Assembly: GCA_964016885.1 (NCBI GenBank)
Contig: CAXHJY010000138.1
Coordinates: 1-64,000 of the forward strand
From: Eledone cirrhosa
Lineage: Eukaryota
Length of the DNA: 64,000 bases
Direction: 5' to 3'
Shown here piece by piece: positions 7,525-63,902 of this stretch. The notes beneath the pieces are model-generated. The model was not told where the DNA came from. It worked only from the letters and a program-made list of their open reading frames with translations, and ran no database searches. Made by a program: the position numbers and the translations under genes. Each line of letters starts with the position of its first letter. Within the stretch, counting starts at the first letter, position 1.

Positions 7525-7590
7525 TATTTTATCTGATGAAAGCGCACCATAATCTGCCTTGGTCGTCCTTGAAATATGTATAATGAAATA
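7525..7590 (+). ncRNA. Type-I hammerhead ribozyme with extended stem II (family relative at 48555-48617 on -)
   Basis: tattttat-CTGATGA-aag..acca..tggt..ctt-GAAA-tatgta-TA-atgaaata. Confidence 0.75.
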
Positions 7591-24588: not shown

Positions 24589-24624
24589 TCTTCTGATGAA
24601 GGACTAGCGTCCGAAACGTTAAGA
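24589..24624 (+). ncRNA. Minimal hammerhead ribozyme
   Basis: tctt-CTGATGA-a ggac tagc gtcc-GAAA-cg-TT-aaga. Confidence 0.78.
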
Positions 24625-28561: not shown

Positions 28562-29531
28562 TATTTCTTTTATTTGCCACTAGGGCATCAAAAGTGGGAC
28601 AAGTACAAAGGGGGGAGTTTACACAAAAAGGCGTCCTCAATAAGGAGGAGGCAATAACAAAATATAAAAATAAAATAAGATATAACAAAAAATAAAATTT
28701 TTAACAAAATCCTCAATAGAGAGGAGGCGCCTTGGGGGGTCGCACACACCCCCGAAAAAAGTGTGCAACCCTTCTCCTCAGGAGCACAGAGAAGGGGTGC
28801 TCCCTTGGTCTTTCATCTTCCTCACCTATAGTCTGATGTAGAGTGAAGGCCCATTCACACGGGCCATTCTCGCCACTTTCACCCATCTTTCATAGAAACG
28901 GCTGGGGTGCAGCACCTCTCTCTCCATCCTGATCCTTCTTCCGAAATGATATCGGAAGAAACGGACCAGTTGTTGGCCAGAGAGAAAGGTGCCCGACCTC
29001 AGTCCTTTCAGACGCGTCCACCATACAACCTCTTTCGCCATGGCTATTACGCACAGAAACACCGCCTCTGCTTCATTGAAGGGGGGAGGCGGCTTGATCA
29101 TTACAATAGACTCGGTGGTCAACCGGATCGGTCCCACCCTTGACAGCAGTTGTTCGACATAGCCCCACAGATCGGCTACGCCCGAGCAGTGTACTAATGC
29201 GTGTGCAACGGTTTCCTCGTCGCACACGCATCTGGGACAGATCTTTTTGGCGGGGTCCCTACCCGGGCGCCCGTGTCTGTAGAGCCTTTCTCGAACGGGT
29301 AAAGCCCCTCGGTAGCACTGCCAGGCCAGGGACTTCTGGAAGTTGTCCATAGGTCCCGGGCTGAATGTCCTACCGAACAGGCTGGCCAGTTCGTCCTCCT
29401 CCATGTCTAGGGCTTCTCCGAGGGCGTCGTCGCACCTGCTGCGTACCAGCCCTCTATAGAATGTTGCGGTGGAGTCTCCACTGATAACCGGATCCGCCTG
29501 CCAGAGGGCGGTGAGCGCCTGGGCACACTCA
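28561..29531 (-). mobile_element. Tx1/L1-clade LINE copy A, 5'-truncated (~970 bp)
   Basis: Nearly identical to the 3' end of copy B (one 3-bp deletion); (GATA)n on both sides. Confidence 0.92.
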
Positions 29532-29550
29532 GATAGATAGATAGATAGAT

Positions 29551-32500
29551 ATATTTCTTTTATTTGCCACTAGGGCATCAAAAGTGGGACAAGTACAAAG
29601 GGGGGAGTTTACACAAAAAGGCGTCCTCAATAAGGAGGAGGCAATAACAAAATATAAAAATAAAATAAGATATAACAAAAAATAAAATTTTTAACAAAAT
29701 CCTCAATAGAGAGGAGGCGCCTTGGGGGGTCGCACACACCCCCGAAAAAAGTGTGCAACCCTTCTCCTCAGGAGCACAGAGAAGGGGTGCTCCCTTGGTC
29801 TTTCATCTTCCTCACCTATAGTCTGATGTAGAGTGAAGGCCCATTCACACGGGCCATTCTCGCCACTTTCACCCATCTTTCATAGAAACGGCTGGGGTGC
29901 AGCACCTCTCTCTCCATCCTGATCCTTCTTCCGAAATGATATCGGAAGAAACGGACCAGTTGTTGGCCAGAGAGAAAGGTGCCCGACCTCAGTCCTTTCA
30001 GACGCGTCCACCATACAACCTCTTTCGCCATGGCTATTACGCACAGAAACACCGCCTCTGCTTCATCTTTGAAGGGGGGAGGCGGCTTGATCATTACAAT
30101 AGACTCGGTGGTCAACCGGATCGGTCCCACCCTTGACAGCAGTTGTTCGACATAGCCCCACAGATCGGCTACGCCCGAGCAGTGTACTAATGCGTGTGCA
30201 ACGGTTTCCTCGTCGCACACGCATCTGGGACAGATCTTTTTGGCGGGGTCCCTACCCGGGCGCCCGTGTCTGTAGAGCCTTTCTCGAACGGGTAAAGCCC
30301 CTCGGTAGCACTGCCAGGCCAGGGACTTCTGGAAGTTGTCCATAGGTCCCGGGCTGAATGTCCTACCGAAAAGGCTGGCCAGTTCGTCCTCCTCCATGTC
30401 TAGGGCTTCTCCGAGGGCGTCGTCGCACCTGCTGCGTACCAGCCCTCTATAGAATGTTGCGGTGGAGTCTCCACTGATAACCGGATCCGCCTGCCAGAGG
30501 GCGGTGAGCGCCTGGGCACACTCAGTGTGCCAGGCGCCCAGTTTTCTCGGTCTTTGCTTGACCCAGGATTGCAGCTCGGTGAGTGAGACGAGTCTGGGAA
30601 AGGTTCGTCTCACAAACGAGGCCCACACCGGTTGTCCGGTGAGGAATACGTAGAGGTGCCGTAGCCTTAATGCGTGTTTACGCATCATTAGCCACGGCAT
30701 CCCCAGCCCTCCTTTCGAAGGGTGTTGACAGCAGATGGATCTCCTCACCATAGGAGCCCGCCTCTTCCAAAGGAATTGGAAGAGCGCGCGCTCCATCTTG
30801 GTGAGGGTTTCCCTTGGGCAGGGCACTACGGTCAGGCGGTAGTAGATGACGGACGCTATGTAGGTGTTCGCCACCTCCGCCCGACCTTTCAGGGATAGTT
30901 TGCAACTGGCCCACTTCTGGGTCAGTGCAAACACTCTGTTCGTAACCTCCGCCCAGTTTTTCTCCACCTGGAGGTCCGGTCCGAACCAGACCCCGAGCAA
31001 CTTCACCGGGCCCTCCGTCCAGCGTCCGACGACGCTATCGGAGGGCATCGGTCTGCCCCTCCACGTGCCGAGTTGCAAACCGATCGACTTGTCCCGGTTC
31101 AGCTTAGCCCCTGTGAACTTTTCGTACTCCTCCAGTAAGGTGCCGACCGCCTCGATTTCGGAGGCCGTCGACACCATTACTGTCACGTCATCGGCGTAGG
31201 CCGACACCGCTTTCCGCAATCCCGGTTCCAAAGGGATGCCCTGCAACAACTCCAACTTCCGCAGTAGTGGCTCGAGAGTCAATACATACAGAAGGGAGGA
31301 GAGAGGGCACCCTTGTCGGATGGACCGCGCGATTTTGAACGGCTCCGAGAGGTAGCCGTTCACCTTGACCCTAGAGCAGATGCGGCTGCTGTGCATAGCA
31401 GTGATCCAGCCCCTGAAAACGGGTCCGAAGCCTGCCGCCGCTAGCACCGCATCCAGGTAACCATGGTCGACCCTATCGAACGCCTTAGATTGATCCAAGT
31501 TGATCAGAGCCCCACCAAAGCCGGGTTCGTTCCCAACCCTCTCTATGATGTATCGCATGAGGTGGAGGTTGTCATGGATGGACCTGGACGGGATAGCGCA
31601 TGTCTGCGCATCTCCCACCAGGTTGCCCACGACAAGCGCCAACCTCTTTGCTAGCACCTTGGCCAAAATCTGTAACTCTGTATTTAGCAGTGTTATGGGC
31701 CTGAAGTTACTTATTTCGTCCCCCTTGTTCTCGTCCTTCCTCACTAGCGTGACTACGCCCTTGGTCACAGTACAGGGAATTCTCCCGTTCTGTTGCCAGT
31801 TGCAGTAGACCGCCTCGAGGAGATCGGGGAACAAGTCCGGCATAGCTAGATATAATTCGTAAGGAAGACCATCGAGACCCGGGGATTTGCGTTTGCCGCA
31901 TTGGCTCAGCACGTCCTCTATCTCAGCGGCCGAAATCGGCTCCTCGCAGGACTTCGCCTCCCTGTCCGAGAGGCGCGGCAGGCCGTCGAGGTATGGACCG
32001 AAGTCCACGTTCCCAACCGGCTCCCCGCCCCTCCCGAACAGTCGGGCAAAGTGCCTTTGAAAGGCCTCACACATCTGCTTAGGCTCAAGAATCGCCCGTC
32101 CATCCAGGTCTCGCAAAGACCGGATGGTGGATTTAGTTCCACTGTTGGCCTCTGTCACGCGGGCCCAGCTAACAGCTTTGGTCCCCTCGTTCCCTAGAGC
32201 ACGTATTTTACTTCGGACAACGCAGCCTTCGTGCTTCGCGTCGAAAAACTGGCTCAAAGCCGTTCTCGACGCTAGCACTCTGGCCACGTCGCCGCTTCTA
32301 ATTGCCTCTTCTACTCTATCTATTAGCTCCCTTTCCTTCCTATTCCTATCCGCAGCTAGAACCTTACTAAATTCTATCGAGACTACTCTAATCTCTCTCT
32401 TTAGAGATACCCACCACCTGCTGTTGACGATCGCTCCAGTCAACCGTTCCTTAACTAACGTACTAATCCGATTCCTGTAGGCTCTACTTGCCGGCAAGGA

Positions 32501-33500
32501 CAAGTTGAGCTTCCAGTAACCGGGGCCCTGTCTATGAGTTCTGTCAAGGTTGACCATGCAGGTCACTAATTTGTGGTCTGAATAGCCAACAATGCGCATT
32601 TTTGGACAACTTAAAAAGTCCTTATCCTTAATTCTAACTAAGAACCTATCTAGGTACGACCTAGATGATCCGCTACGATTTGCCCAAGTCCAGGTTGGCG
32701 CAGTCGGAAAATCTAGTCGATATCTATCGGCCAGGTCAAATCGACCGATTAACCCTTTGAGGCTATTACACCCCTCTCTATCGGGGCAGGCCCCTACGTA
32801 GTCCCAGCGTGCATCTAGGATACCATTCCAGTCCCCCACTAATAGCAAGGAGCGGGACGTCCCTAGAAAAGTCTCCAGACGATGGAAGAAGTCCGGCCGC
32901 ATTGACCCGAAAGGGCCGTAGGCGGCTACCAACCTAAACGCTCCGCCTTTACCACTGCCAAGGTCCAGAACCACTAGTCGACCCTCCGGGTCCAAATGTA
33001 CCATCTGTGTTGCGAGACCCAGATGTTTTTGCAGCAGAACGACAACTCCACCCCCACCTCCAGGCTGACAGAGAGATGCGTGCATCTCAAAGTCATCAAA
33101 GGTGGGGGCCAGCTGTCGCACGTTGCTGATCCGGGCCTCGCAAATAACCATCACATCTATACGTTGTGACCTGAGGTCATTTAGAAGCATTGCTTGCTTC
33201 CAAGTTGAGCCCAGGCCACGCGCATTTAAACAGCCTACTCTTAGCATAGCCATGTTGGTGGTGAAGAGAAAAGGCACTTACCTCTCTGCGTCCCGGGTAT
33301 CGGGCTGCACAATTTCCATTAGGGTGGGGGATGGGTTGTTGGGTGGGGTGGTGGTTTGTGGAAGTGTGGGGGCATCAGTGGGTTGTGTGGTTGGGGAGCT
33401 TGGAGTTGTGAGGGTGTTTGGGGAGGGGGTGGGATAGTTTTTTAGGAGGACTCGGTTAATGGGCCCGACGCAGGGGGGACCCACGTCCTCTTTAAAATTG
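29551..33500 (-). mobile_element. Tx1/L1-clade LINE copy B, truncated within ORF1
   Basis: Intact ORF2 plus ORF1 tail (33278-33500); bounded by (GATA)n. Confidence 0.92.
29816..33253 (-). CDS. LINE ORF2: AP endonuclease, reverse transcriptase and C-terminal zinc finger
   Basis: NARGL, GDWN, SYLDRFL, SDH; KSPGLDG, FRPITLLN, DQSKAFD, QGCPLS, YADD; CPRC-x8-H-x4-C; likely ATG start (MAMLRVG). Confidence 0.95.
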   Translation of the reverse strand: MAMLRVGCLNARGLGSTWKQAMLLNDLRSQRIDVMVICEARISNVRQLAPTFDDFEMHASLCQPGGGGGVVVLLQKHLGLATQMVHLDPEGRLVVLDLGSGKGGAFRLVAAYGPFGSMRPDFFHRLETFLGTSRSLLLVGDWNGILDARWDYVGACPDREGCNSLKGLIGRFDLADRYRLDFPTAPTWTWANRSGSSRSYLDRFLVRIKDKDFLSCPKMRIVGYSDHKLVTCMVNLDRTHRQGPGYWKLNLSLPASRAYRNRISTLVKERLTGAIVNSRWWVSLKREIRVVSIEFSKVLAADRNRKERELIDRVEEAIRSGDVARVLASRTALSQFFDAKHEGCVVRSKIRALGNEGTKAVSWARVTEANSGTKSTIRSLRDLDGRAILEPKQMCEAFQRHFARLFGRGGEPVGNVDFGPYLDGLPRLSDREAKSCEEPISAAEIEDVLSQCGKRKSPGLDGLPYELYLAMPDLFPDLLEAVYCNWQQNGRIPCTVTKGVVTLVRKDENKGDEISNFRPITLLNTELQILAKVLAKRLALVVGNLVGDAQTCAIPSRSIHDNLHLMRYIIERVGNEPGFGGALINLDQSKAFDRVDHGYLDAVLAAAGFGPVFRGWITAMHSSRICSRVKVNGYLSEPFKIARSIRQGCPLSSLLYVLTLEPLLRKLELLQGIPLEPGLRKAVSAYADDVTVMVSTASEIEAVGTLLEEYEKFTGAKLNRDKSIGLQLGTWRGRPMPSDSVVGRWTEGPVKLLGVWFGPDLQVEKNWAEVTNRVFALTQKWASCKLSLKGRAEVANTYIASVIYYRLTVVPCPRETLTKMERALFQFLWKRRAPMVRRSICCQHPSKGGLGMPWLMMRKHALRLRHLYVFLTGQPVWASFVRRTFPRLVSLTELQSWVKQRPRKLGAWHTECAQALTALWQADPVISGDSTATFYRGLVRSRCDDALGEALDMEEDELASLFGRTFSPGPMDNFQKSLAWQCYRGALPVRERLYRHGRPGRDPAKKICPRCVCDEETVAHALVHCSGVADLWGYVEQLLSRVGPIRLTTESIVMIKPPPPFKDEAEAVFLCVIAMAKEVVWWTRLKGLRSGTFLSGQQLVRFFRYHFGRRIRMEREVLHPSRFYERWVKVARMARVNGPSLYIRL

Positions 33501-33501
33501 T

Positions 33502-33573
<72 letters not shown>

Positions 33574-33804
33574 ATTTCTATTTATTTGCCACGAGGGCAC
33601 AAAAGAAGGGGACATTTACACAGTGGGGGAGTTTACATAAATCGAGTAAAGAAAAAAGGAATAACAATAATAATATAACAATAAAAAGTCCTCAAAAGGG
33701 AGGGGGCGTGTTGGGGATTGCACATACCCCCGAAAAGTGTGCAACTCTTTTCGCGGGGGAAGCCCAGAGAGGAGGCGCTCCCCCTTTCCTCTTCACTTCT
33801 TCAC

Positions 33805-36800
33805 CTACAGAACAATGTAGAGAGAAGGCCCATTTACACGGGCCATTCTCGCTTCTTTCACCCACCTTTCATAAAACTGTCTGGGACCAAGCACTTCTCT
33901 CTCCATCCTGATTCTTCTTCCGAAGTGGTATCGGAAGAAGTAAACCAGGTGATGGCCGGAGAGAAAGTCACCCGACCTCAGACCTTTCAGGCGCGTCCAC
34001 CACACAACCTCTTTCATCATGGCTATTACGCACAGAAAGACCGCCTCTGCTTCATTTCTGAAGGGAGGAGGCGGCTTGATGTTCACCACAGACTCGGCGG
34101 TTAATCGAATCGGCGCCACACGCGACAGCAGTCGTTCGACGTAGCCCCACAGATCGGCAACGCCCGGGCAGTGTACCAGTGCATGCGCAACGGTTTCCTC
34201 GTCGCGCACGCATCTGGGACAGATCTTTTTCGCGGGATCCCTGCCCGGGCGCCCGTGTCTGTAGAGCTTTTCTCGAACGGGCAGAGCCCCCCGGTAACAC
34301 TGCCAGGCTAGGGACCTCTGGAAGTTGTCCATGGGTCCCGGGCCGAAAGTTCTACCGAACAGGCTGGCCAGTTCGTCCTCCTCCATGCCTAGCGACTCTC
34401 CAAGGGTGTCGTCGCCCCTGCTAGCCACCAACCCTCTATAGAATGTCGAGGTGGATTCTCCACTGACAGTCGGGTCCGCTTGCCAGATAGCCGTGAGCGC
34501 CTGGGCACACTCAGTGTGCCAGTTGCCCAGTTTTCTCGGTCTTTGCTTCACCCAGGATTGCAGTTCGGTGAGCGAGACGAGCTGTGGGAAGGCTCGCCTC
34601 ACAAACGGGGCCCACACCGGCTGACCGTTGAGGAATACCTGTAGATGCCGTAGCCTCAATGCGTGCCTACGCATCAACAGCCACGGCATACCCAGCCCTC
34701 CTTTCGAAGGGTGCTGGCAGCAGATGGATCTCCTCACCATGGGAGGCCGCTTCTTCCAGAGGAACTGGAAGAGCATGCGTTCCATGATGGTGAGCTTTTC
34801 CTTGGGGCAAGGCACGACGGTCAGGCGGTAGTAGATGACGGACGCTATGTAAGCGTTCGTCACCTCCGCCCGACCTTTCAGTGATAGTTTGCACTTGGCC
34901 CACTTCTGGGTCAGCGCAAACACCCTGCTCGTCACCTCGCCCCAATTCTTCTCCACCTGGAGGTCCGGTCCGAACCAGACCCCGAGCAGCTTCACCGGGC
35001 CCTCCGTCCACCGCCCGACGACACCGTCCAACGGCATCGGTTTGCCCCTCCACGTTCCGAGTTGCAAACCGACCGACTTGTCCTGGTTCAGCTTAGCCCC
35101 CGTCAGCCTTTCGTATTCCTCCAGTAGGGTGGCGATCGCCCCGATTTCCGAGGCGTCCGCCACCATTACTGTTACGTCGTCGGCATAGGCCGAGACCGCT
35201 TTGTGCAATCCCGGTTCCAGGGGTATGCCCCGCAGCAACTCCAACTTCCGCAGCAGTGGCTCGAGAGTCAATACGTACAGAAGGGAGGAGAGGGGGCACC
35301 CCTGTCTGATGGATCGGGTGATTTGAAACGGCTCCGAGAGGTAGCCGTTTACTTTAATCCTAGAGTAGATGTTGCCACTGTGCATGGCAGAAATCCAGCC
35401 CCTGAAAACGGGTCCGAAGCCCGCCGCCGCTAGCACCGCATCCAGGTAACCATGGTCGACCCTATCGAACGCCTTAGATTGATCCAAGTTGATCAGGGCC
35501 CCACCAAAGCCGGGTTCGTAGCCAACCCTCTCTATGATGTATCGCATGAGGTGGAGGTTGTCGTGAATGGACCTGGACGGGATAGCGCATGTCTGCGCGT
35601 CTCCCACCAAACCACCCACCACAAGCGCCAACCTCTTCGTCAACACCTTGGCCAAAATCTGTAACTCTGCATTCAGCAGAGTTATGGGCCTAAAGTTACT
35701 TAAGTCGTCCCCCTTGCTCTCGTCCTTCCTCACTAGCGTGACCACGCCCTTGGTCACAGAACAGGGAATTCTCCCGTTCTGTTGCCAGTTGCAATAGACA
35801 GCCTCGAGGAGTTCGGAGAACAAGACCGGCATAGCTAAATAAAGTTCGTATGGTAGACCATCGAGACCCGGGGATTTGCGTCTGCTGCATTGGCTGAGCG
35901 CTTCCCCGATTTCAGTGGCTGTGATTGGCCCTTCGCAGCACTCCGCTTCGCCGCTCGAAAGACGCGGTAGACCGTCGAGGTATGGACCGAAGTCCACATC
36001 CCCGTCCGGCCCCCCGCCACCTCCGAACAGTCGAGCAAAGTGCCTTTGAAAGGTCTCGCACATTCGCTCAGGTTCAAGGATCACCCGTCCATCCTGGTCT
36101 CGCAAAGACCGAATGGTGGATTTAATCCCACTCTTGGCTTCTGTCACGCGGGCCCAGCTAACAGCTTTGGTCCCCTCGTTTCCTAAAGCACGTATTTTAC
36201 TTCGGACAACGCAGCCTTCGTGCTTCGCGTCAAAGAACTGGCTCAATGCCGTTCTCGTCGCTAACACTCTGGCTACGTCTCCGCTCCTAATCGCCTCTTC
36301 TAGTTTATCTGTTAACTCCCTTTCCCTCCTATTTCTATTCGCCGCTAGTTCCTTACTGTAACCTATCGAACTTACTCTAATCTCTCTCTTTAGAGATACC
36401 CACCACCTGCTGTTGACGATCGCTCCCGTCAACCGCATCTTAACTAAGCTACTAATCCGGTTTCTGTAATCTTTCTTTGTCGGTAAGGACAAGTTCATCT
36501 TCCAGTAACCGGGACCCTGTCTATGCGTTCTATCAAGGTTGACCACGCAGGTCACTAATTTGTGATCTGAATAGCCAACCATGATCAGTTCTGGACAACT
36601 AAATACGTCCCTATCCTTACTCCTAACCAAAAACCTATCTAGGTACGATCTAGATTGTCCACTGCGGTTTGCCCAGGTCCAGGTTGGCGCAGTTGGACAA
36701 TCTAGTCGAAATCTATCGACCAGGTCGAATCGATCGAGTAACCCCTTGAGGCTGCTACACCCCCCTCTATCGGGACATGCCCCTGCATAGTCCCAACGCG

Positions 36801-37233
36801 CATCTAGGATTCCATTCCAGTCCCCCACTAAAAGCAGGGAACGCGACGTTCCTAGAAAAGTCTCCAGACGTTGGAAGAAGTCGGCTCTCTCCGCCCCGAA
36901 GGGAGCATAAAGACCGACCAGTCTGAAAGCCCCGCCTTCACCACCTCCGACGTCCAGCACCAGTAATCGACCCCCCGGGTCCGAGTGAACAATCTGTACG
37001 TCGAGAGTCAGACGTTTATCCAGCAGTACGGCAACTCCCCCCCCGCCTCCGGGTTGACAGAGAGATGCGTGCATCTCAAAGTCATCGAAGGCGGGCGCCA
37101 GCTGTCTCACGCTGCTGATCCGACTCTCGCAAACAACCATCACATCTATACTTTGTGACCTGAGGTCACTTAGAAGCTTTGCTTGCTTCCAAGCTGAGCT
37201 CAGGCCACGCGCGTTCAAACAGCCAACTCTCAA
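33805..37233 (-). CDS. LINE ORF2 (APE-RT-ZnF), uninterrupted, no N-terminal ATG
   Basis: Same motifs as copy B; ATA GAT CAA TTG where B has ATG GCT ATG CTA. Confidence 0.93.
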   Translation of the reverse strand: MRVGCLNARGLSSAWKQAKLLSDLRSQSIDVMVVCESRISSVRQLAPAFDDFEMHASLCQPGGGGGVAVLLDKRLTLDVQIVHSDPGGRLLVLDVGGGEGGAFRLVGLYAPFGAERADFFQRLETFLGTSRSLLLVGDWNGILDARWDYAGACPDRGGCSSLKGLLDRFDLVDRFRLDCPTAPTWTWANRSGQSRSYLDRFLVRSKDRDVFSCPELIMVGYSDHKLVTCVVNLDRTHRQGPGYWKMNLSLPTKKDYRNRISSLVKMRLTGAIVNSRWWVSLKREIRVSSIGYSKELAANRNRRERELTDKLEEAIRSGDVARVLATRTALSQFFDAKHEGCVVRSKIRALGNEGTKAVSWARVTEAKSGIKSTIRSLRDQDGRVILEPERMCETFQRHFARLFGGGGGPDGDVDFGPYLDGLPRLSSGEAECCEGPITATEIGEALSQCSRRKSPGLDGLPYELYLAMPVLFSELLEAVYCNWQQNGRIPCSVTKGVVTLVRKDESKGDDLSNFRPITLLNAELQILAKVLTKRLALVVGGLVGDAQTCAIPSRSIHDNLHLMRYIIERVGYEPGFGGALINLDQSKAFDRVDHGYLDAVLAAAGFGPVFRGWISAMHSGNIYSRIKVNGYLSEPFQITRSIRQGCPLSSLLYVLTLEPLLRKLELLRGIPLEPGLHKAVSAYADDVTVMVADASEIGAIATLLEEYERLTGAKLNQDKSVGLQLGTWRGKPMPLDGVVGRWTEGPVKLLGVWFGPDLQVEKNWGEVTSRVFALTQKWAKCKLSLKGRAEVTNAYIASVIYYRLTVVPCPKEKLTIMERMLFQFLWKKRPPMVRRSICCQHPSKGGLGMPWLLMRRHALRLRHLQVFLNGQPVWAPFVRRAFPQLVSLTELQSWVKQRPRKLGNWHTECAQALTAIWQADPTVSGESTSTFYRGLVASRGDDTLGESLGMEEDELASLFGRTFGPGPMDNFQRSLAWQCYRGALPVREKLYRHGRPGRDPAKKICPRCVRDEETVAHALVHCPGVADLWGYVERLLSRVAPIRLTAESVVNIKPPPPFRNEAEAVFLCVIAMMKEVVWWTRLKGLRSGDFLSGHHLVYFFRYHFGRRIRMEREVLGPRQFYERWVKEARMARVNGPSLYIVL

Positions 37234-37238
37234 TTGAT

Positions 37239-39073
37239 CTATTTTGGTGTTGAAAGTGAAGAAAGAAAAGCACTTACCTCTCCGGGTTGCGTAATTTCCA
37301 TGGCATCAGGTGTGTTGGGTGGAGGGATGTTTTGTGGTGGTGTGGGGGTACACGTGTGTGGTGGGGTTGGGGTATTTGGAGTTGTGTCAGGGAGAGGGGC
37401 GGTTATGGGGAAATCTTTCAAGAGGACGCGATTCAACGGTTTTAAACAGGGGGGGCTCACGTCCCGTCTAAATTGTTCTTTTAAGGAACGATAAAGGTCC
37501 AGAGGGACCTTTATCATTTTTAAATGGGTGAAGTTCTCTGTTGAGATAAAGTTTGGCCCTTCGGTCTGCACCATAGGGTTATTGTTTATTAATTTAACCA
37601 GTTTTTTGTTTTCTTTATTTATATATGTGTATTGCAACGTCTTTTTTTGTGATGCTGTCAATGTTTCGGAGAGGGGAGGCGCAGATTTATTTTTGTTTGT
37701 TGAGGGTGGGGTGTTTTTGATTGGAGTTGGTGTTTGTGTGTGGGTTATTTGTGGTGTGCTGGGTGTGTGTTTTCTTTTTTTTCTTTTAACTTGTCTGAAG
37801 GCTTCTCCTCCTTCTTCTTCAGAAGTTGGGGGAAACTCTTCAGCGCTAGGTGGGAGGGACGTGTTGTGTGGTTGTTTTTTTTTTGCGGGAGGGGTAGATT
37901 TGTTACTGTTTTTTTTATTATTTGTTTGGAATGGGTTTTGTGGTGGTGGTGGTGGTAATGTTTGTGTCGTGCTTGTGGTTGGTAATGGTGGTGGTGATGT
38001 TTGTGTTGTGGTTGGTGGTGGTGATTTTTGTGTCGTGCTTGTGTTTGGTGCTGGTGGTGGTGATGTTTGTGTTGTGTTTGTGGTTGGTGGTGTCTGTATT
38101 TTGTTTGCTGTGTGTGGTATTAGTGTATTTTTGGAGGTGGGTGGTGCTGGTGTACTGTTTGTGGTGGGTGTGGGCAATAGTCCTTTTTGGGGGATACGTT
38201 TCGGGCAGTTAGCCTTAACGTGTCCCCTTTCCATGCATAAATAGCATGCTGGTCTTCTCCCCTCTACAATTATGTCTATTGGGGTAAGGTCATCCAGCCA
38301 GATGCGATCCGGGATTTGTGCTATTCTTTCGGGCCTCATTTGGACTAGTATGTCGAGGCCCATTCCCAGGAACGCATCTCCAGTTGCCTTCCCCATTGAC
38401 AGCATAGTGTCTTCGCCCATATCAATGAAGCCAGCAATAGCCCACCAGAAGTCCATTGTGGGCAGCATTGTTTTTACTTTTATTCTCTGAGTTCTTCTAC
38501 CCATGTAGGAGGGATAGAAGCTATATGTTGTCGGCGAGAGTGGGCTTAGGGAAAGCTGAACCGCCGTTTCTTTGTCTCTTGTTAGGACCGAAATGCTGCC
38601 ATAGAGTCGGTCCTTTCGTATGAAGAGAATATTCTTCATATAGTCTTTTAGGACTAACTCTATTTCCATTTGGCTGGGCTGTGCTGGCTTTCTTGACTGG
38701 TTTAGTATAGTTCTGTATATAACTGTGTTTTCTGCTCTGGCTTTCTTGAATTCTGGGGGGGAGTTAATGGAAAACATTCCGTTTTCCCCCAAAACAATAT
38801 GTTTCTTTGCTTCGGCCAGTTTTTCTCTGGCGGCAGTTAGGTCAATTGGTGTGTATGTAATGGATTGCTTTGTTTTCTGGGCGAAAGTTGCCCTGTCGTT
38901 ATTTGTATTATTTTCTGTTTGTTTGTTTTCTGTTTGCTTATTTTCCTTAACATTTGTTTTTTCATTTTGTTTGTTTGTTTCAATGTCTAATTTTGTTGTA
39001 ATTATTTTTTGTTCTTCAGACTTGGGGGGCGTGGCAGAGCTAATGGCAGACATGTCTGCCATCTTTTCCGCCA
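37239..39073 (-). CDS. LINE ORF1 gag-like protein with CCHC zinc knuckle and Pro/Thr-rich tail
   Basis: CYLCMERGHVKANC; lies directly upstream of ORF2; likely start MAEKMADM. Confidence 0.9.
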
Positions 39074-39275
39074 TGCTGCCAAGAAAGAAATTTTTCGGCA
39101 AAAATAGATATTTATTTTACCCCCTAAAAAGGGGGTAAATGCAAAAATGTTTCCCTAAATAACAGGGGTTAGTGTTCCAAATGTGTTGCACTAAAAAATT
39201 TATCCGGTACTTACAATAGCAAGGGTAAATCCCGATGGAATAGCGGAGCCGATGCGAAGCGTGTCTTACTCTATC

Positions 39276-40307: not shown

Positions 40308-40697
40308 ATGTAGGAGGTGAGTTTTATTGTAGTACAATAAAGCAATGCAGATATCGGATAAGTAGCGCTTTACAGTTGTAGGACTGGAGTATAAATAATA
40401 TATAAGATCAAAAGATGGTTAAAAGAGTTCCATGTATTTTATTATGAGCATTTCAAAAACAAATATCATCATGCGATGACATTTGCGTTTTCATCAGATA
40501 AAATAGGGAGACATGATATGAAGGTTAAAAAATGTTGATTTAAAACTGCACTATTCACAAGTGTTTTTTAACCTTCATATTATGTCTCCTTATTTTATCT
40601 GATGAAAACGCAAATGTCATCGCATGATGATATTTGTTTTTGAAATGCGCATAATAAAATACATGGAACTCTTTTAACCATCTTTTGATCTTATATA
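40308..40697 (+). mobile_element. Hammerhead element with an internal inverted duplication (arms 40398-40532 / 40564-40697); ribozymes at 40591-40661 (+) and 40435-40505 (-)
   Basis: Same family as 28211-28470; an inverted 3' half is inserted between the 5' part and the 3' half. Confidence 0.85.
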
Positions 40698-42654: not shown

Positions 42655-43334
42655 CTGAAATAAATAAATCATTCCTGAGATGACAAACCATTCAAGGTTT
42701 GATCTCTTCAGTAGCCCGTATTTCCTTTTTAAAAAAAAACAAAAACAAAACCAGATATTCTTCGATTTGTAACGAAAAATGAATTAAACAACAGAATATT
42801 ACAGAGATTTGAAATAAAACCAAGAAATATTGAAACTCAATTTAAACGAAGCGTGTATGTAATTTTTTTAATAAATATATGACAATTTCTGTTTTGTAAT
42901 ACATTATTTCAGTAGCCGTTCCATGTGAATGCATTGCCAAATTTATTTTACTTTACATTTAGGAAATCTTTTCAAATGATATTACTAAAGAAATGTACAG
43001 AATATTAAGAAAAAAGAATATTTTGTCATTTCTAGTAGTCCCACCAAATAATTATAGCTATAGCTCACCATTTTTATATTTGTTAAATAGACAGTAAATA
43101 AAATATAGGTATAGTGGTAACATTTTTGGCTCCACACAATATTCTTGTGTTTTGAATAGTAATTTGAATAAATTGTAGATACATTTACTATTAAAGATGA
43201 TACAAATTGTACATTTGCTAAAAGTTGTTCAAAAATTTGCTACGCCTGAGTGATAATAATAGCTTGGTCCCATATGTGTGTATGTATGTATGTGTGCGTG
43301 TTTGTGTGTAGCAGATTAATCTAGCGTGCATCAA

Positions 43335-46819
<3,485 letters not shown>

Positions 46820-46823
<4 letters not shown>

Positions 46824-47860
46824 GGAAAAAATGAAACGAAATTTCATTTCCCACTCTTAGTACGGCTGTTACTTAAATATAAGTATGTACACGTACATAC
46901 ATATATGTATACAGACGTACAGTAGTATGTATATATATATACATGCATGCACACATATATATATGTACGTATGGATTCACCGAAAATTTATTATAATGCT
47001 CGGTGTGTTTGGAAACAAACATCCCGTATTAAGCCGTAGTGTCCAGCAAACATCGTTGCTCGTTTGTTCAACACTGACAAAGGAACGCTGTACTAGTTTC
47101 AAGCTTATTAGCTATCGTCAGCAACGTATACCTTCCTGCCAGATTGTTGAACGTATATATTTACCTTATGCATATTAACGGCTGAGTAGCCCAATTTGCA
47201 TGACGATAGCTAATAAGCTTGAAACTAGTACAGCGTTCCTTTGTCAGTGTTGAACAAACGAGCAACGATGTTTGCTGGACACTACGGCTTAATACGGGAT
47301 GTTTGTTTCCAAACACACCGAGCATTATAATAAATTTTCGGTGAATCCATACGTACATATATATATGTGTGCATGCATGTATATATATATACATACTACT
47401 GTACGTCTGTATACATATATGTATGTACGTGTACATACTTATATTTAAGTAACAGCCGTACTAAGAGTGGGAAATGAAATTTCGTTTCATTTTTTCCGTT
47501 TATCGTTTTCGGTGCACCCGGCCGATTAACCCACTCGATATGCAAATTGGGCTACTCAGCCGTTAATATGCATAAGGTAAATATATACGTTCAACAATCT
47601 GGCAGGAAGGTATACGTTGCTGACGATAGCTAATAAGCTTGAAACTAGTACAGCGTTCCTTTGTCAGTGTTGAACAAACGAGCAACGATGTTTGCTGGAC
47701 ACTACGGCTTAATGTGGGATGTTTGTTTACAAATACACCGAGCATTATAATAAATTTTCGGTGAATCCATACGTACATATATATATGTGTGCATGTATGT
47801 ATATATATATACATACTACTGTACGTCTGTATACATATATGTATGTATGTGTACATACTT
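46820..47860 (+). mobile_element. Non-autonomous Penelope-like/retrozyme element: inverted copy (46820-47201) plus partial tandem with a 420-bp period
   Basis: TGACGAtagctaataagcttGAAActagTA at 47201 and 47621; mirror copy at 47085-47127. Confidence 0.85.
47614..47656 (+). ncRNA. Minimal type-I hammerhead ribozyme
   Basis: acgttg-CTGACGA-t agct aata agct t-GAAA-ctag-TA-cagcgt; palindromic stem III ACTAGT. Confidence 0.87.
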
Positions 47861-47976
47861 ATATATATATATATATATAGTGGTGGAACAATGGAAGCTA
47901 ATATCCGTAGTGGTAGAGCACTCAGTCCAAGGGACGAGTTAGGTAGAAGTGGTTACACAACAGTTAGTTCACCATA

Positions 47977-48016
47977 CCGAGAACAATTATTTCACCTTCA
48001 CGGATCTTCAGCTCGG
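47977..48016 (-). ncRNA. Minimal type-I hammerhead ribozyme
   Basis: ccgag-CTGAAGA-tcc gtgaa ggt-GAAA-taattg-TT-ctcgg. Confidence 0.75.
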
Positions 48017-48081
48017 GATGTGTATGGTTATAGGAACAGAAAGGACAATAAATATATATATATATATAAATATGTATATAA

Positions 48082-48714: not shown

Positions 48715-48820
<106 letters not shown>

Positions 48821-48827
48821 CCAAATT

Positions 48828-49295
48828 TATACGGGAACAAGACAGAGAATCAGACAAATAAAGGTTTATTAGGTTCCCGCTTTTGAGAGTGAGGGGTGGG
48901 GAACCACGTTTCAGGCATAAGCCCTTCTTCAGGAGTAAATAGGTTAGTAAGAGAGTTCAGAGGGTGTGTGGAAATACATTTAGAAAAAATGGGGAAAGAG
49001 ATCAAATAAAAATAAAAATAAACATATATATATAGTAAAAAATTGAACGGGAACAAAACAGAGAGGCAGTACGAACAAAGGTTTATTAGTTTCACGCTCT
49101 TGAGAGTTGGGTGTTGGTGGGGAACGACGTTTCGGGCATAAGCCCTTCTTCAGGTGAAAAGTGTGTGGGAAGAGAGTTACAAGGGTGTGTAGGGGAGTGG
49201 TGGAGAGACATATAGAAAAAAGGGGATGAGAGGAAACGGTACAAATGGAATTAAATATAAAAGCATAATAAAAATAAAAATAAACATATATATAT
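48828..49295 (-). mobile_element. Diverged tandem dimer, each unit with a minimal hammerhead (48901-48935, 49123-49157)
   Basis: CTGAAGA-a gggc ttat gcc(c/t)-GAAA-cgt(c/g); cores 221 bp apart; AATAAA downstream in both units. Confidence 0.75.
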
Positions 49296-62644: not shown

Positions 62645-62686
62645 ACATAAATCTTTCGTTGCACATCTGCAACATCGTCAGTGGTG
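62645..62686 (-). ncRNA. Hammerhead-like motif downstream of the Penelope-like ORF
   Basis: CTGACGA-t gttgca gatg tgcaac-GAAA-gattTA; stem I weak. Confidence 0.6.
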
Positions 62687-62958: not shown

Positions 62959-63863
62959 TTATACTTCTCTTAGGTCAGTGTTGTTTGTTTGGGTGTTGTT
63001 GTTGTTCCACTCATTCTTTCTGTTTAGCTTTGGTCTTCTAATTTCTATTTCACTGGCCTCTCTGATTTGCCTATCTGCTGGGTCATTCCTATGTTTAGAT
63101 ATTATTCTAATTTCTATGTTGTCTATGTTACCGTCATGTTGTTGTCTAGCATGTTCGTATAGTACTGTCCCGTTTTTTCGTCCTTTTAGTTCCCCCCAGT
63201 GTTGGTCTATCCTTTCACCTATGCTACGAGCTGTCTCACCTATGTATGTTGTTGTCGTGTTTCTGCAAGTACCCTCTGTACATCTAATGCTATAGACTAC
63301 GTTTCTAGTTTTACAGTTTATCCGGGGGTTCACCTTACATATGATACATTTCCTATTGGTACAGTGGGTTTTCTTAAAAGGGTAGGTTTTGCTGATCAGG
63401 GATTTTATGGTGGTTCCTGGCTTTTCTACCACCATTATTTTTAAGTGGGTCTTTCTCAGGGCCTTTCTACACTGGTTAGCTAATTTCCCTCCAGGAGTGG
63501 CGTCCACAAACATGACACTCTGATATCTCTGGTTGTCGTACCATGATGTGGCCTTCCCTATCTTATGTCTAGCCCTATCTAAGCTATTCCATGATTTGCT
63601 CCTGTATAGTGGGCAAATTCCTTTCATGTCCAGTTCTATGAGGGTCTTATACTTTTCCATGGCTCCTTCGTATACTCCGACTCTGTCTCTTTGGTTGTAG
63701 CCAGAGAACTGCATGCGGTTGATGAAGTGTTGGATGTGTCTTTCCATTTCTGTTGGGTCGCACATGCTGGACACATTCTTCATCACTCGTACCAAATCTG
63801 CGATCAGAATATTAAACTTAGCACTACTGGACATTGCTGAGTTTTTGAGTATCAGGTATTTGG
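62959..63863 (-). CDS. Penelope-like element polyprotein 3' fragment: RT thumb/linker plus GIY-YIG endonuclease
   Basis: MQFSGY; C-x4-C-x2-C linker (CTNRKCIIC); NVVYSIRC...YIGETARSIGERIDQH...LYEH...RQIREA...PKLN; truncated at a (TA)n tract. Confidence 0.9.
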
Positions 63864-63902
63864 ATATATATATATATTATGTATATATATATAATATATA
63901 TA

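Follow-up and report, generated by a model that had tools for sequence, protein, structure and literature searches.

A probable non-LTR retrozyme copy from Eledone cirrhosa with the insertion layout of a Penelope-like element

A 420-bp repeat that carries hammerhead ribozyme motifs, and that is present at a single locus of Eledone cirrhosa both as a partial tandem and as an adjacent inverted copy, raises the questions of what kind of element it belongs to and from which template it was inserted. The locus lies in the right half of the window, that is, the whole stretch of 64,000 nt of contig CAXHJY010000138.1 that was analyzed. A sequence-only reading had described it as a ribozyme-delimited monomer and a retrozyme or circular RNA candidate, left either by reverse transcription of a circular RNA or by a template jump of a Penelope-like element (PLE). 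We consider it rather probable that the locus represents a copy of an abundant non-LTR retrozyme with a 420-bp unit, inserted into an (AT)n target by a PLE reverse transcriptase (RT)-endonuclease provided in trans. As such it is best classified as a new family behaving like a PLE-mobilized non-LTR retrozyme, an element kind that is already known.

Comparison of the locus with itself gives a period of 420 bp, at which 234 of 240 positions match (35 to 105 for the other periods from 415 to 425). The segment 47201-47447 recurs at 47621-47867, and the direct part as a whole (47201-47867, 667 bp) amounts to 1.59 units, in agreement with the roughly 1.6 units first read; the period is absent from the TRF output, and a separate repeat search was dominated by microsatellite. 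Upstream of the direct part, 46818-47120 corresponds to 47201-47503 in reverse complement without a single mismatch over 303 bp, and 46874-47201 matches 47540-47867 in inverted orientation (328 bp, 97.9%). Taken together, these two matches define an inverted copy of 384 bp, where about 380 bp had been estimated. The unit is composed of three segments, A (303 bp), W (36 bp), and Z (81 bp), and the locus has the order rc(A) rc(Z) A W Z B, in which B is a variant of the start of A (244-247 bp) and about 175 non-coding bases separate the pseudo-LTRs. The outer ends of the insertion fall at unit positions 47503 and ~47444 and not at ribozyme sites. The term ribozyme-delimited thus suits the predicted RNA monomer and not the inserted DNA, whose ends are the 3′ end of the family and an internal AT-rich site. 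Both flanks of the insertion are AT-rich, with an (AT)n-type microsatellite on the left and a short (AT)n run on the right. Coordinates are collected in Table 1.

Table 1. Features of the 420-bp repeat locus and its flanks (window coordinates).
Feature	Position	Strand	Basis
Left flank, (AT)n/(ATGT)-type microsatellite (~3.5 kb), likely target; target-site duplication unreadable	43330-46817		Sequence; the junction AT is common with the continuation of the unit
Inverted 5′-truncated unit copy, 384 bp, running from unit position 47540 across the hammerhead up to 47503, the 3′ end of the family	46818-47201	-	0 mismatches to 47201-47503 and 47540-47620
"Tail" of ~59 bp on the inverted arm, missing from the right end	46818-46876	-	Arm comparison; contig ends at 47503 in (AT)n
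Intact type I hammerhead of the inverted copy, predicted cleavage after 47091 (C3 at 47121)	47085-47127	-	Descriptor search
Head-to-head junction with 4-nt microhomology TTGC and one-base offset; alone too short for significance	47196-47201		Junction alignment
First direct copy (A), 5′-truncated within the hammerhead core; pseudo-LTR equivalent	47201-47444	+	Copy comparison
Truncated hammerhead without C3 and the helix I 5′ strand; cleavage-site strand intact	47201-47236	+	Descriptor and copy comparison
Predicted 420-nt monomer RNA, 37.6% GC, highly self-paired	47231-47650	+	Folding versus shuffles
Long TA-rich hairpin	47345-47432	+	Folding
Tail segment within the tandem, foldable as a 12-bp hairpin	47445-47503	+	Folding
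Non-coding body between tail and hammerhead, place of the ORF in a coding PLE	47504-47613	+	Crossed by divergent contigs and RAD reads
Intact type I hammerhead, core C 47620, predicted cleavage after A47650	47614-47656	+	Descriptor search
Second direct copy (B), tail-less end at ~47864 in an internal TATAT running into (AT)n	47621-47867	+	Copy comparison
Right flank, short (AT)n	47865-47879		Sequence

The complete hammerhead in direct orientation is built from a 6-bp helix I, closed by a long stem (47589-47675), the CUGACGA core, a 4-bp helix II with an AAUA loop, GAAA, and a helix III consisting of the palindrome CUAG. In place of the usual G10.1-C11.1 pair, a U.U mismatch stands at the base of helix II. 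The type I descriptor that this hammerhead matches is passed by none of 5000 shuffles of the unit, and it finds on average 0.01 matches per shuffled window (100 shuffles) against six in the real one. In comparison with a second hammerhead family of the window (at 1964), 7 of the 10 pairs of helices I and II are changed on both sides, all of them are still paired, and the U.U mismatch is kept. Judged from sequence, the hammerhead motif is real and well above chance. The sequence-only reading was right in taking the core at 47620 as intact and the one at 47201 as truncated at its core C, and the predicted cleavage after 47650 fits the monomer that it proposed; it had missed the second intact hammerhead, on the minus strand of the inverted copy. 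Rfam reports no ribozyme family among the 35 matches (E up to 10) on 47150-47760 or among the best 150 of 283 matches for the whole window, and its miRNA matches, far below the gathering scores, were dismissed as noise from the TA hairpin. The exact 32-nt hammerhead pattern has no match in metagenome contigs.

The predicted monomer folds as a circle with a minimum free energy (MFE) of -129.9, compared to -91.6 ± 4.7 for 100 shuffles (z = -8.1); without the TA hairpin the circular z is -4.2 (100 shuffles), and the linear fold gives a z of -6.98. The predicted active fold of the hammerhead lies 6.8 kcal/mol above the local MFE. Hammerheads with helices of 6 bp and 4 bp and a short palindromic helix III are of the "canonical" metazoan type, which works best as a dimer (PMC4209133). 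The U.U at the base of helix II is shared with HHR_Amex2 of axolotl, whose self-cleavage is weak for the single motif and good for the dimer (PMC7229834), and in vitro cleavage was obtained for one of the nine dimers in the preprint of Li, Clavereau & Pollet 2026 (10.64898/2026.07.22.740005). At the present locus, release of the monomer would need two cuts with a single complete direct core, which could cut the upstream site within a double hammerhead; to cut at its own site it would have to use the weak monomer fold or a second molecule. An "active retrozyme" in the sense of Li et al. 2026 has two complete hammerheads, and this copy has one in direct orientation, that of the first direct copy being truncated, so it falls outside that definition.

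The repeat is not confined to this locus. Four of 23 listed sequencing runs were compared to 47201-47620 at 85% likeness, namely the contigs of X1, X5, and X4, three of the 20 runs that contain part of the stretch, and the RAD reads of X21. The unit is matched by 10,610 of 16.5 million contigs in X1, 129 of 762,587 in X5, and 75,967 of 12.5 million reads in X21; the summed depth in X1 is 0.5-2.6 million outside the skipped TA repeat, and neither depth nor contig count equals copy number. The plain inference from these sequence matches is that the 420-bp unit represents a large, variable family. X4, from organism B, has 3 matching contigs among 9.9 million (depth 3.6-31), which may come from a relative or from cross-contamination, and nothing on host range or horizontal transfer is therefore concluded from them. 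The family leaves the unit at 47503 into (AT)n in 52 X1 and 4 X5 contigs, exactly where the inverted arm ends, and one X5 contig runs into (AT)n at 47447, which corresponds to the right arm's end (both among the 20 of 513 loose ends listed). Divergent contigs span both 47503/47504 and 47620/47201, and the body from tail to hammerhead is covered by thousands of reads. Since the former point is crossed and the body is covered, the 420-bp unit is family-wide, with the unit junctions crossed by contigs and reads and no listed piece spanning the whole unit. The joint of 47620 to 47201 does not count as proof of tandem arrays, since any single unit contains it.

Variation within the family is informative for the hammerhead region. 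A single variant, in loop 2, falls within 47201-47232 among the best 40 of 61 variants, end positions being possibly filtered. At 47233, G>T accounts for 54% of the X1 depth, and all seven listed rows that cover 47617 carry A (five) or G (two), which suggests from sequence a compensated helix I pair, the two positions not being read-phased. Of the matched X21 reads, 78% continue into unlike sequence. Diverged subfamilies thus share only parts of the unit, and a longer coding relative is possible. At least one diverged subfamily with the hammerhead region departs after 47258 (11,374 RAD reads), and another departs after 47438 (24,128 RAD reads), the loose ends at these two positions being those of X21 and X4/X5.

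As to the class of element, the longest ATG ORF on the sense strand of the unit has 49 residues, and a low-complexity antisense ORF has 97, 76 of which were scanned against Pfam without a match. The statement that the repeat has no credible ORF is thus upheld. The unit is non-coding, lies within 150-450 bp with a GC content below 50% (37.6%), and is present in many copies; in these features, in its type I hammerhead, and in its predicted self-paired monomer it is like the animal non-LTR retrozymes, which have been described together with their circles (PMC7229834, Cervera & de la Pena 2020) and for which the 2026 preprint argues that they are non-autonomous PLE sequences (10.64898/2026.07.22.740005). 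It differs from the described retrozymes in having one complete direct hammerhead and no sequence match to any described family, and the inverted arm, the tail, and the (AT)n targeting seen here go beyond the retrozyme descriptions in the accessible portions of these two sources. Neither the 420-bp family nor two-strand priming for retrozymes was found in the literature searched, which included few subscription papers; the supplementary family lists of PMC7229834, PMC8557442, and the 2026 preprint may hold the family.

The features foreign to retrozymes are those of PLE insertions, in which a partial tandem forms a pseudo-LTR, often with an adjacent inverted 5′-truncated copy and a tail of 30-40 bp at one end (PMC8557442, Craig et al.; the layout is repeated in PMC8969392). 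Targets of the (TA)n kind are linked to the Neptune-type linker and to the Hydra and Naiad clades (PMC8557442), and rotifer PLEs show a tail on one inverted pseudo-LTR as well as unrelated sequence mobilized in trans (PMC3846280). For anole, the purified PLE protein has been shown to cleave AT-rich DNA and to extend both of its strands. It begins reverse transcription at two sites, which mark the limits of the tail, and works on uncleaved RNA (PMC11167929). The locus therefore resembles the EN+ PLEs (Neptune, Nematis, Hydra, Penelope/Poseidon) in the pseudo-LTR tandem, the inverted truncated copy, the tail, the AT target, and the hammerhead within the repeat (PMC8557442, PMC3846280, PMC11167929). 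It is unlike them, as these sources describe them, in the short distance between the pseudo-LTRs, in the length of the tail, and in a hammerhead that is canonical-like and not a min-HHR; no ORF with RT and GIY-YIG, as an autonomous PLE would carry, was found between the pseudo-LTRs. Non-autonomous Chlamys PLEs such as MRC1 are likewise non-coding, with pseudo-LTRs and head-to-tail insertions, but Chlamys PLEs are green algal, mostly without hammerheads, and favor (CA)n or (C)n (PMC8557442). A tRNA-derived SINE was rejected, with no tRNA gene detected and no A or B box on the sense strand. In LINE-1 twin priming, a second primer from the other target strand yields an inverted 5′ part that is joined by microhomology; the present locus is different in that it has no poly(A) end and its inverted arm starts at the family 3′ end and not by the start of the direct part.

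The combination of inverted copy, pseudo-LTR, unit, one-sided tail, and (AT)n points to a likely parasite of Penelope-like elements. The earlier retrozyme/PLE assignment hence stands as regards the hammerhead architecture, the high-copy non-coding family, and the PLE layout, and has to be qualified for the single complete direct hammerhead. We envisage that a donor tandem would be transcribed as a multimer and that the PLE protein would nick the AT target on both strands. A cDNA would then be primed from each 3′ end on RNA left uncleaved by the hammerhead, one at the tail end (47503) and the other at the internal UAUAU (47444); within the unit the two cDNAs would extend as far as 47540 and 47201 and be joined head-to-head through the short microhomology. 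In a parallel branch, tandem donors would be cleaved, best as dimers via the palindromic helix III, into 420-nt monomers, which a host ligase could circularize by analogy to other animal retrozymes. This cleavage and circle branch probably did not make the present insertion. Counting against the PLE-driven retrozyme reading are the missing Rfam match, the energy of the active fold, the U.U mismatch, the run-on of RAD reads into unlike sequence, and a tail of 59 bp where 30-40 bp have been described; in addition, the end that lacks a tail is seen in one listed contig. No autonomous partner with the same ends was found, the comparison being with the single PLE-like 3′ region in the window.

The choice of template can be approached through the differences between copies. 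These had been called nearly identical. The inverted arm is identical to A, whereas copy B departs from A at 6 of 244 sites, all six of which have the base of A in the inverted arm (6/244 against 0/303 for arm versus A, Fisher p 0.008-0.03). One pass around one monomer circle gives identical copies, and the A/B differences thus disfavor it for this insertion. A heterogeneous donor tandem with a linear uncleaved transcript would explain the allele pattern directly. Of the two origins first proposed, the involvement of a PLE is retained on account of the layout, and an origin from a single monomer circle is, on the sequences compared, disfavored. The difference between A and B would also follow if an older B had been the target or if the palindrome arms had undergone conversion. 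With either of these, an element of the same kind could have been inserted by more-than-unit reverse transcription of a 420-nt circle, B being the older target or the A arms having been homogenized, which we regard as unlikely. Consistent with such a circle are the arms, which cross the cleavage site intact, the identity of the A-type segments over 303 + 81 bp, the folding of the circular monomer far beyond that of shuffles, the demonstration that coral, mussel, and axolotl retrozymes form circles (PMC7229834), and the decay-like C>T character of four of the six differences in B. However, identical copies would be expected from it; at 47309 it is B that has the family-majority base, both A copies having a rare one; an older B requires that the new copy landed exactly at its 5′ edge; and PLE insertion in vitro is independent of hammerhead cleavage (PMC11167929).

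It is improbable, in our view, that the pieces are simply the pseudo-LTR ends of a coding PLE (5′-truncated or a deletion derivative) with a minimal hammerhead and no free monomer. Coding PLEs do show an identical layout, opposite-strand hammerhead pairs 100-700 bp apart have been attributed to truncated PLEs (PMC4209133), and the run-on of RAD reads into unlike sequence is joined by two X5 contigs each with other sequence upstream of 47410 and of 47502. Yet the whole body between tail and hammerhead is crossed by the divergent contigs and reads mentioned above, the share of X1 contigs that continue into unlike sequence is 0 as rounded, and no upstream loose end is widely shared among the best 20 of 513 listed. 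The 6-bp/4-bp/palindromic-III arrangement, moreover, is that of retrozymes and not the long bulged helix II of the min-HHR of PLEs (PMC4209133).

Still less probable is an inversion that arose from self-priming or fold-back on an antisense template, or from a replication template switch after insertion, in place of a second target-primed cDNA. An inverted repeat with an inverted spacer fits a template switch, the inverted arm copies A exactly, self-priming on an antisense template is the model for rotifer PLEs (PMC3846280), and the second family of the window has a perfect central hairpin; but the arm stops, with (AT)n following, precisely at the 3′ end of the family, a site that a random switch would not choose, the junction has no palindrome, and fold-back onto the present right copy would bring the alleles of B and leave the tail without a source. 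An assembly or chimeric-read artefact in the inverted arm is very hard to credit, since both outer ends are biologically specific sites and the layout recurs at 1654-2123 (arms 98.7% alike) and is typical of PLEs, even if a 303-bp perfect palindrome stands next to a 3.5-kb microsatellite and the joints listed (15 of 50) do not include the one at 47200/47201.

Beyond this locus, we put forward, tentatively and with some doubt, that retrozyme insertions in general may result from PLE two-strand priming at two fixed sites on an uncleaved linear multimer and not from a rolling circle. If true, the inverted pseudo-LTRs and one-sided tails of PLEs would be explained in one step, the circles would be a side product, and the choice of template would be readable from the genome through thousands of short polymorphic copies. 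The published link between retrozymes and PLEs rests on common ribozymes, co-occurrence, and pseudo-LTR similarity; what is added here is the anatomy of integration, that is, a retrozyme-type unit with the inverted arm, tail, and (AT)n target of a PLE. The allele pattern bears both on the circular versus linear template and on the origin of the inverted repeats of PLEs, and with a high-copy polymorphic family of 420 bp both questions are countable genome-wide and cheap to address in vitro.

A PLE-like ORF is present in the same window, 5′-truncated and embedded in (AT)n at 62959-63876 (minus strand), with a CX4CX2C linker and, by eye, a GIY-YIG-like C-terminus. By these sequence motifs it appears Neptune/Nematis-like. 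Its feature matches in the ESM Atlas score 0.95-0.96, with GIY-YIG on 18-31% of the members; it has no Pfam match and no PDB relative, and the 12 homologues found are without names. The ORF region and the 420-bp unit have nothing in common beyond low-complexity matches and the 8-nt core. Its presence attests to elements of this type in the genome but does not identify this ORF as the driver. A min-HHR-like motif with CUGACGA lies by this ORF at 62681 (minus strand).

Further elements are scattered over the window. The second hammerhead family, at 1654-2123, forms a palindrome of 452 bp (98.7%) with its arms head-to-head and (AT)n runs on either side, with intact hammerheads at 1964 (plus) and 1851 (minus) that have the same U.U helix II base as the 420-bp unit, and with a tail of ~30-37 bp on the left arm only. 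A third hammerhead fragment (47880-48050, minus strand, core C 48011), with U.U plus a 2-bp helix II and a palindromic loop III, lies tail-to-tail with the 420-bp insertion across the short (AT)n. At 48790-49274 (minus) we find a diverged tandem of ~220 bp (73% identity), in which hammerhead-like cores lie at 48932 and 49153, and at 24593 (plus) a minimal hammerhead of the kind typical of PLE pseudo-LTRs, helix II being preceded by a bulged base. The region 28826-39116 (minus) contains tandem LINE-like ORFs, two of them endonuclease-RT (1153 and 1166 residues) and one, upstream, of 625 residues with a zinc knuckle. Finally, CUGANGA...GAAA motifs with weak helices occur in AT-rich repeats at 7533 and 9630 (plus) and with cores at 40599 (plus), 40497, and 28308 (minus), some of which form an opposite-strand pair near 40500-40600.
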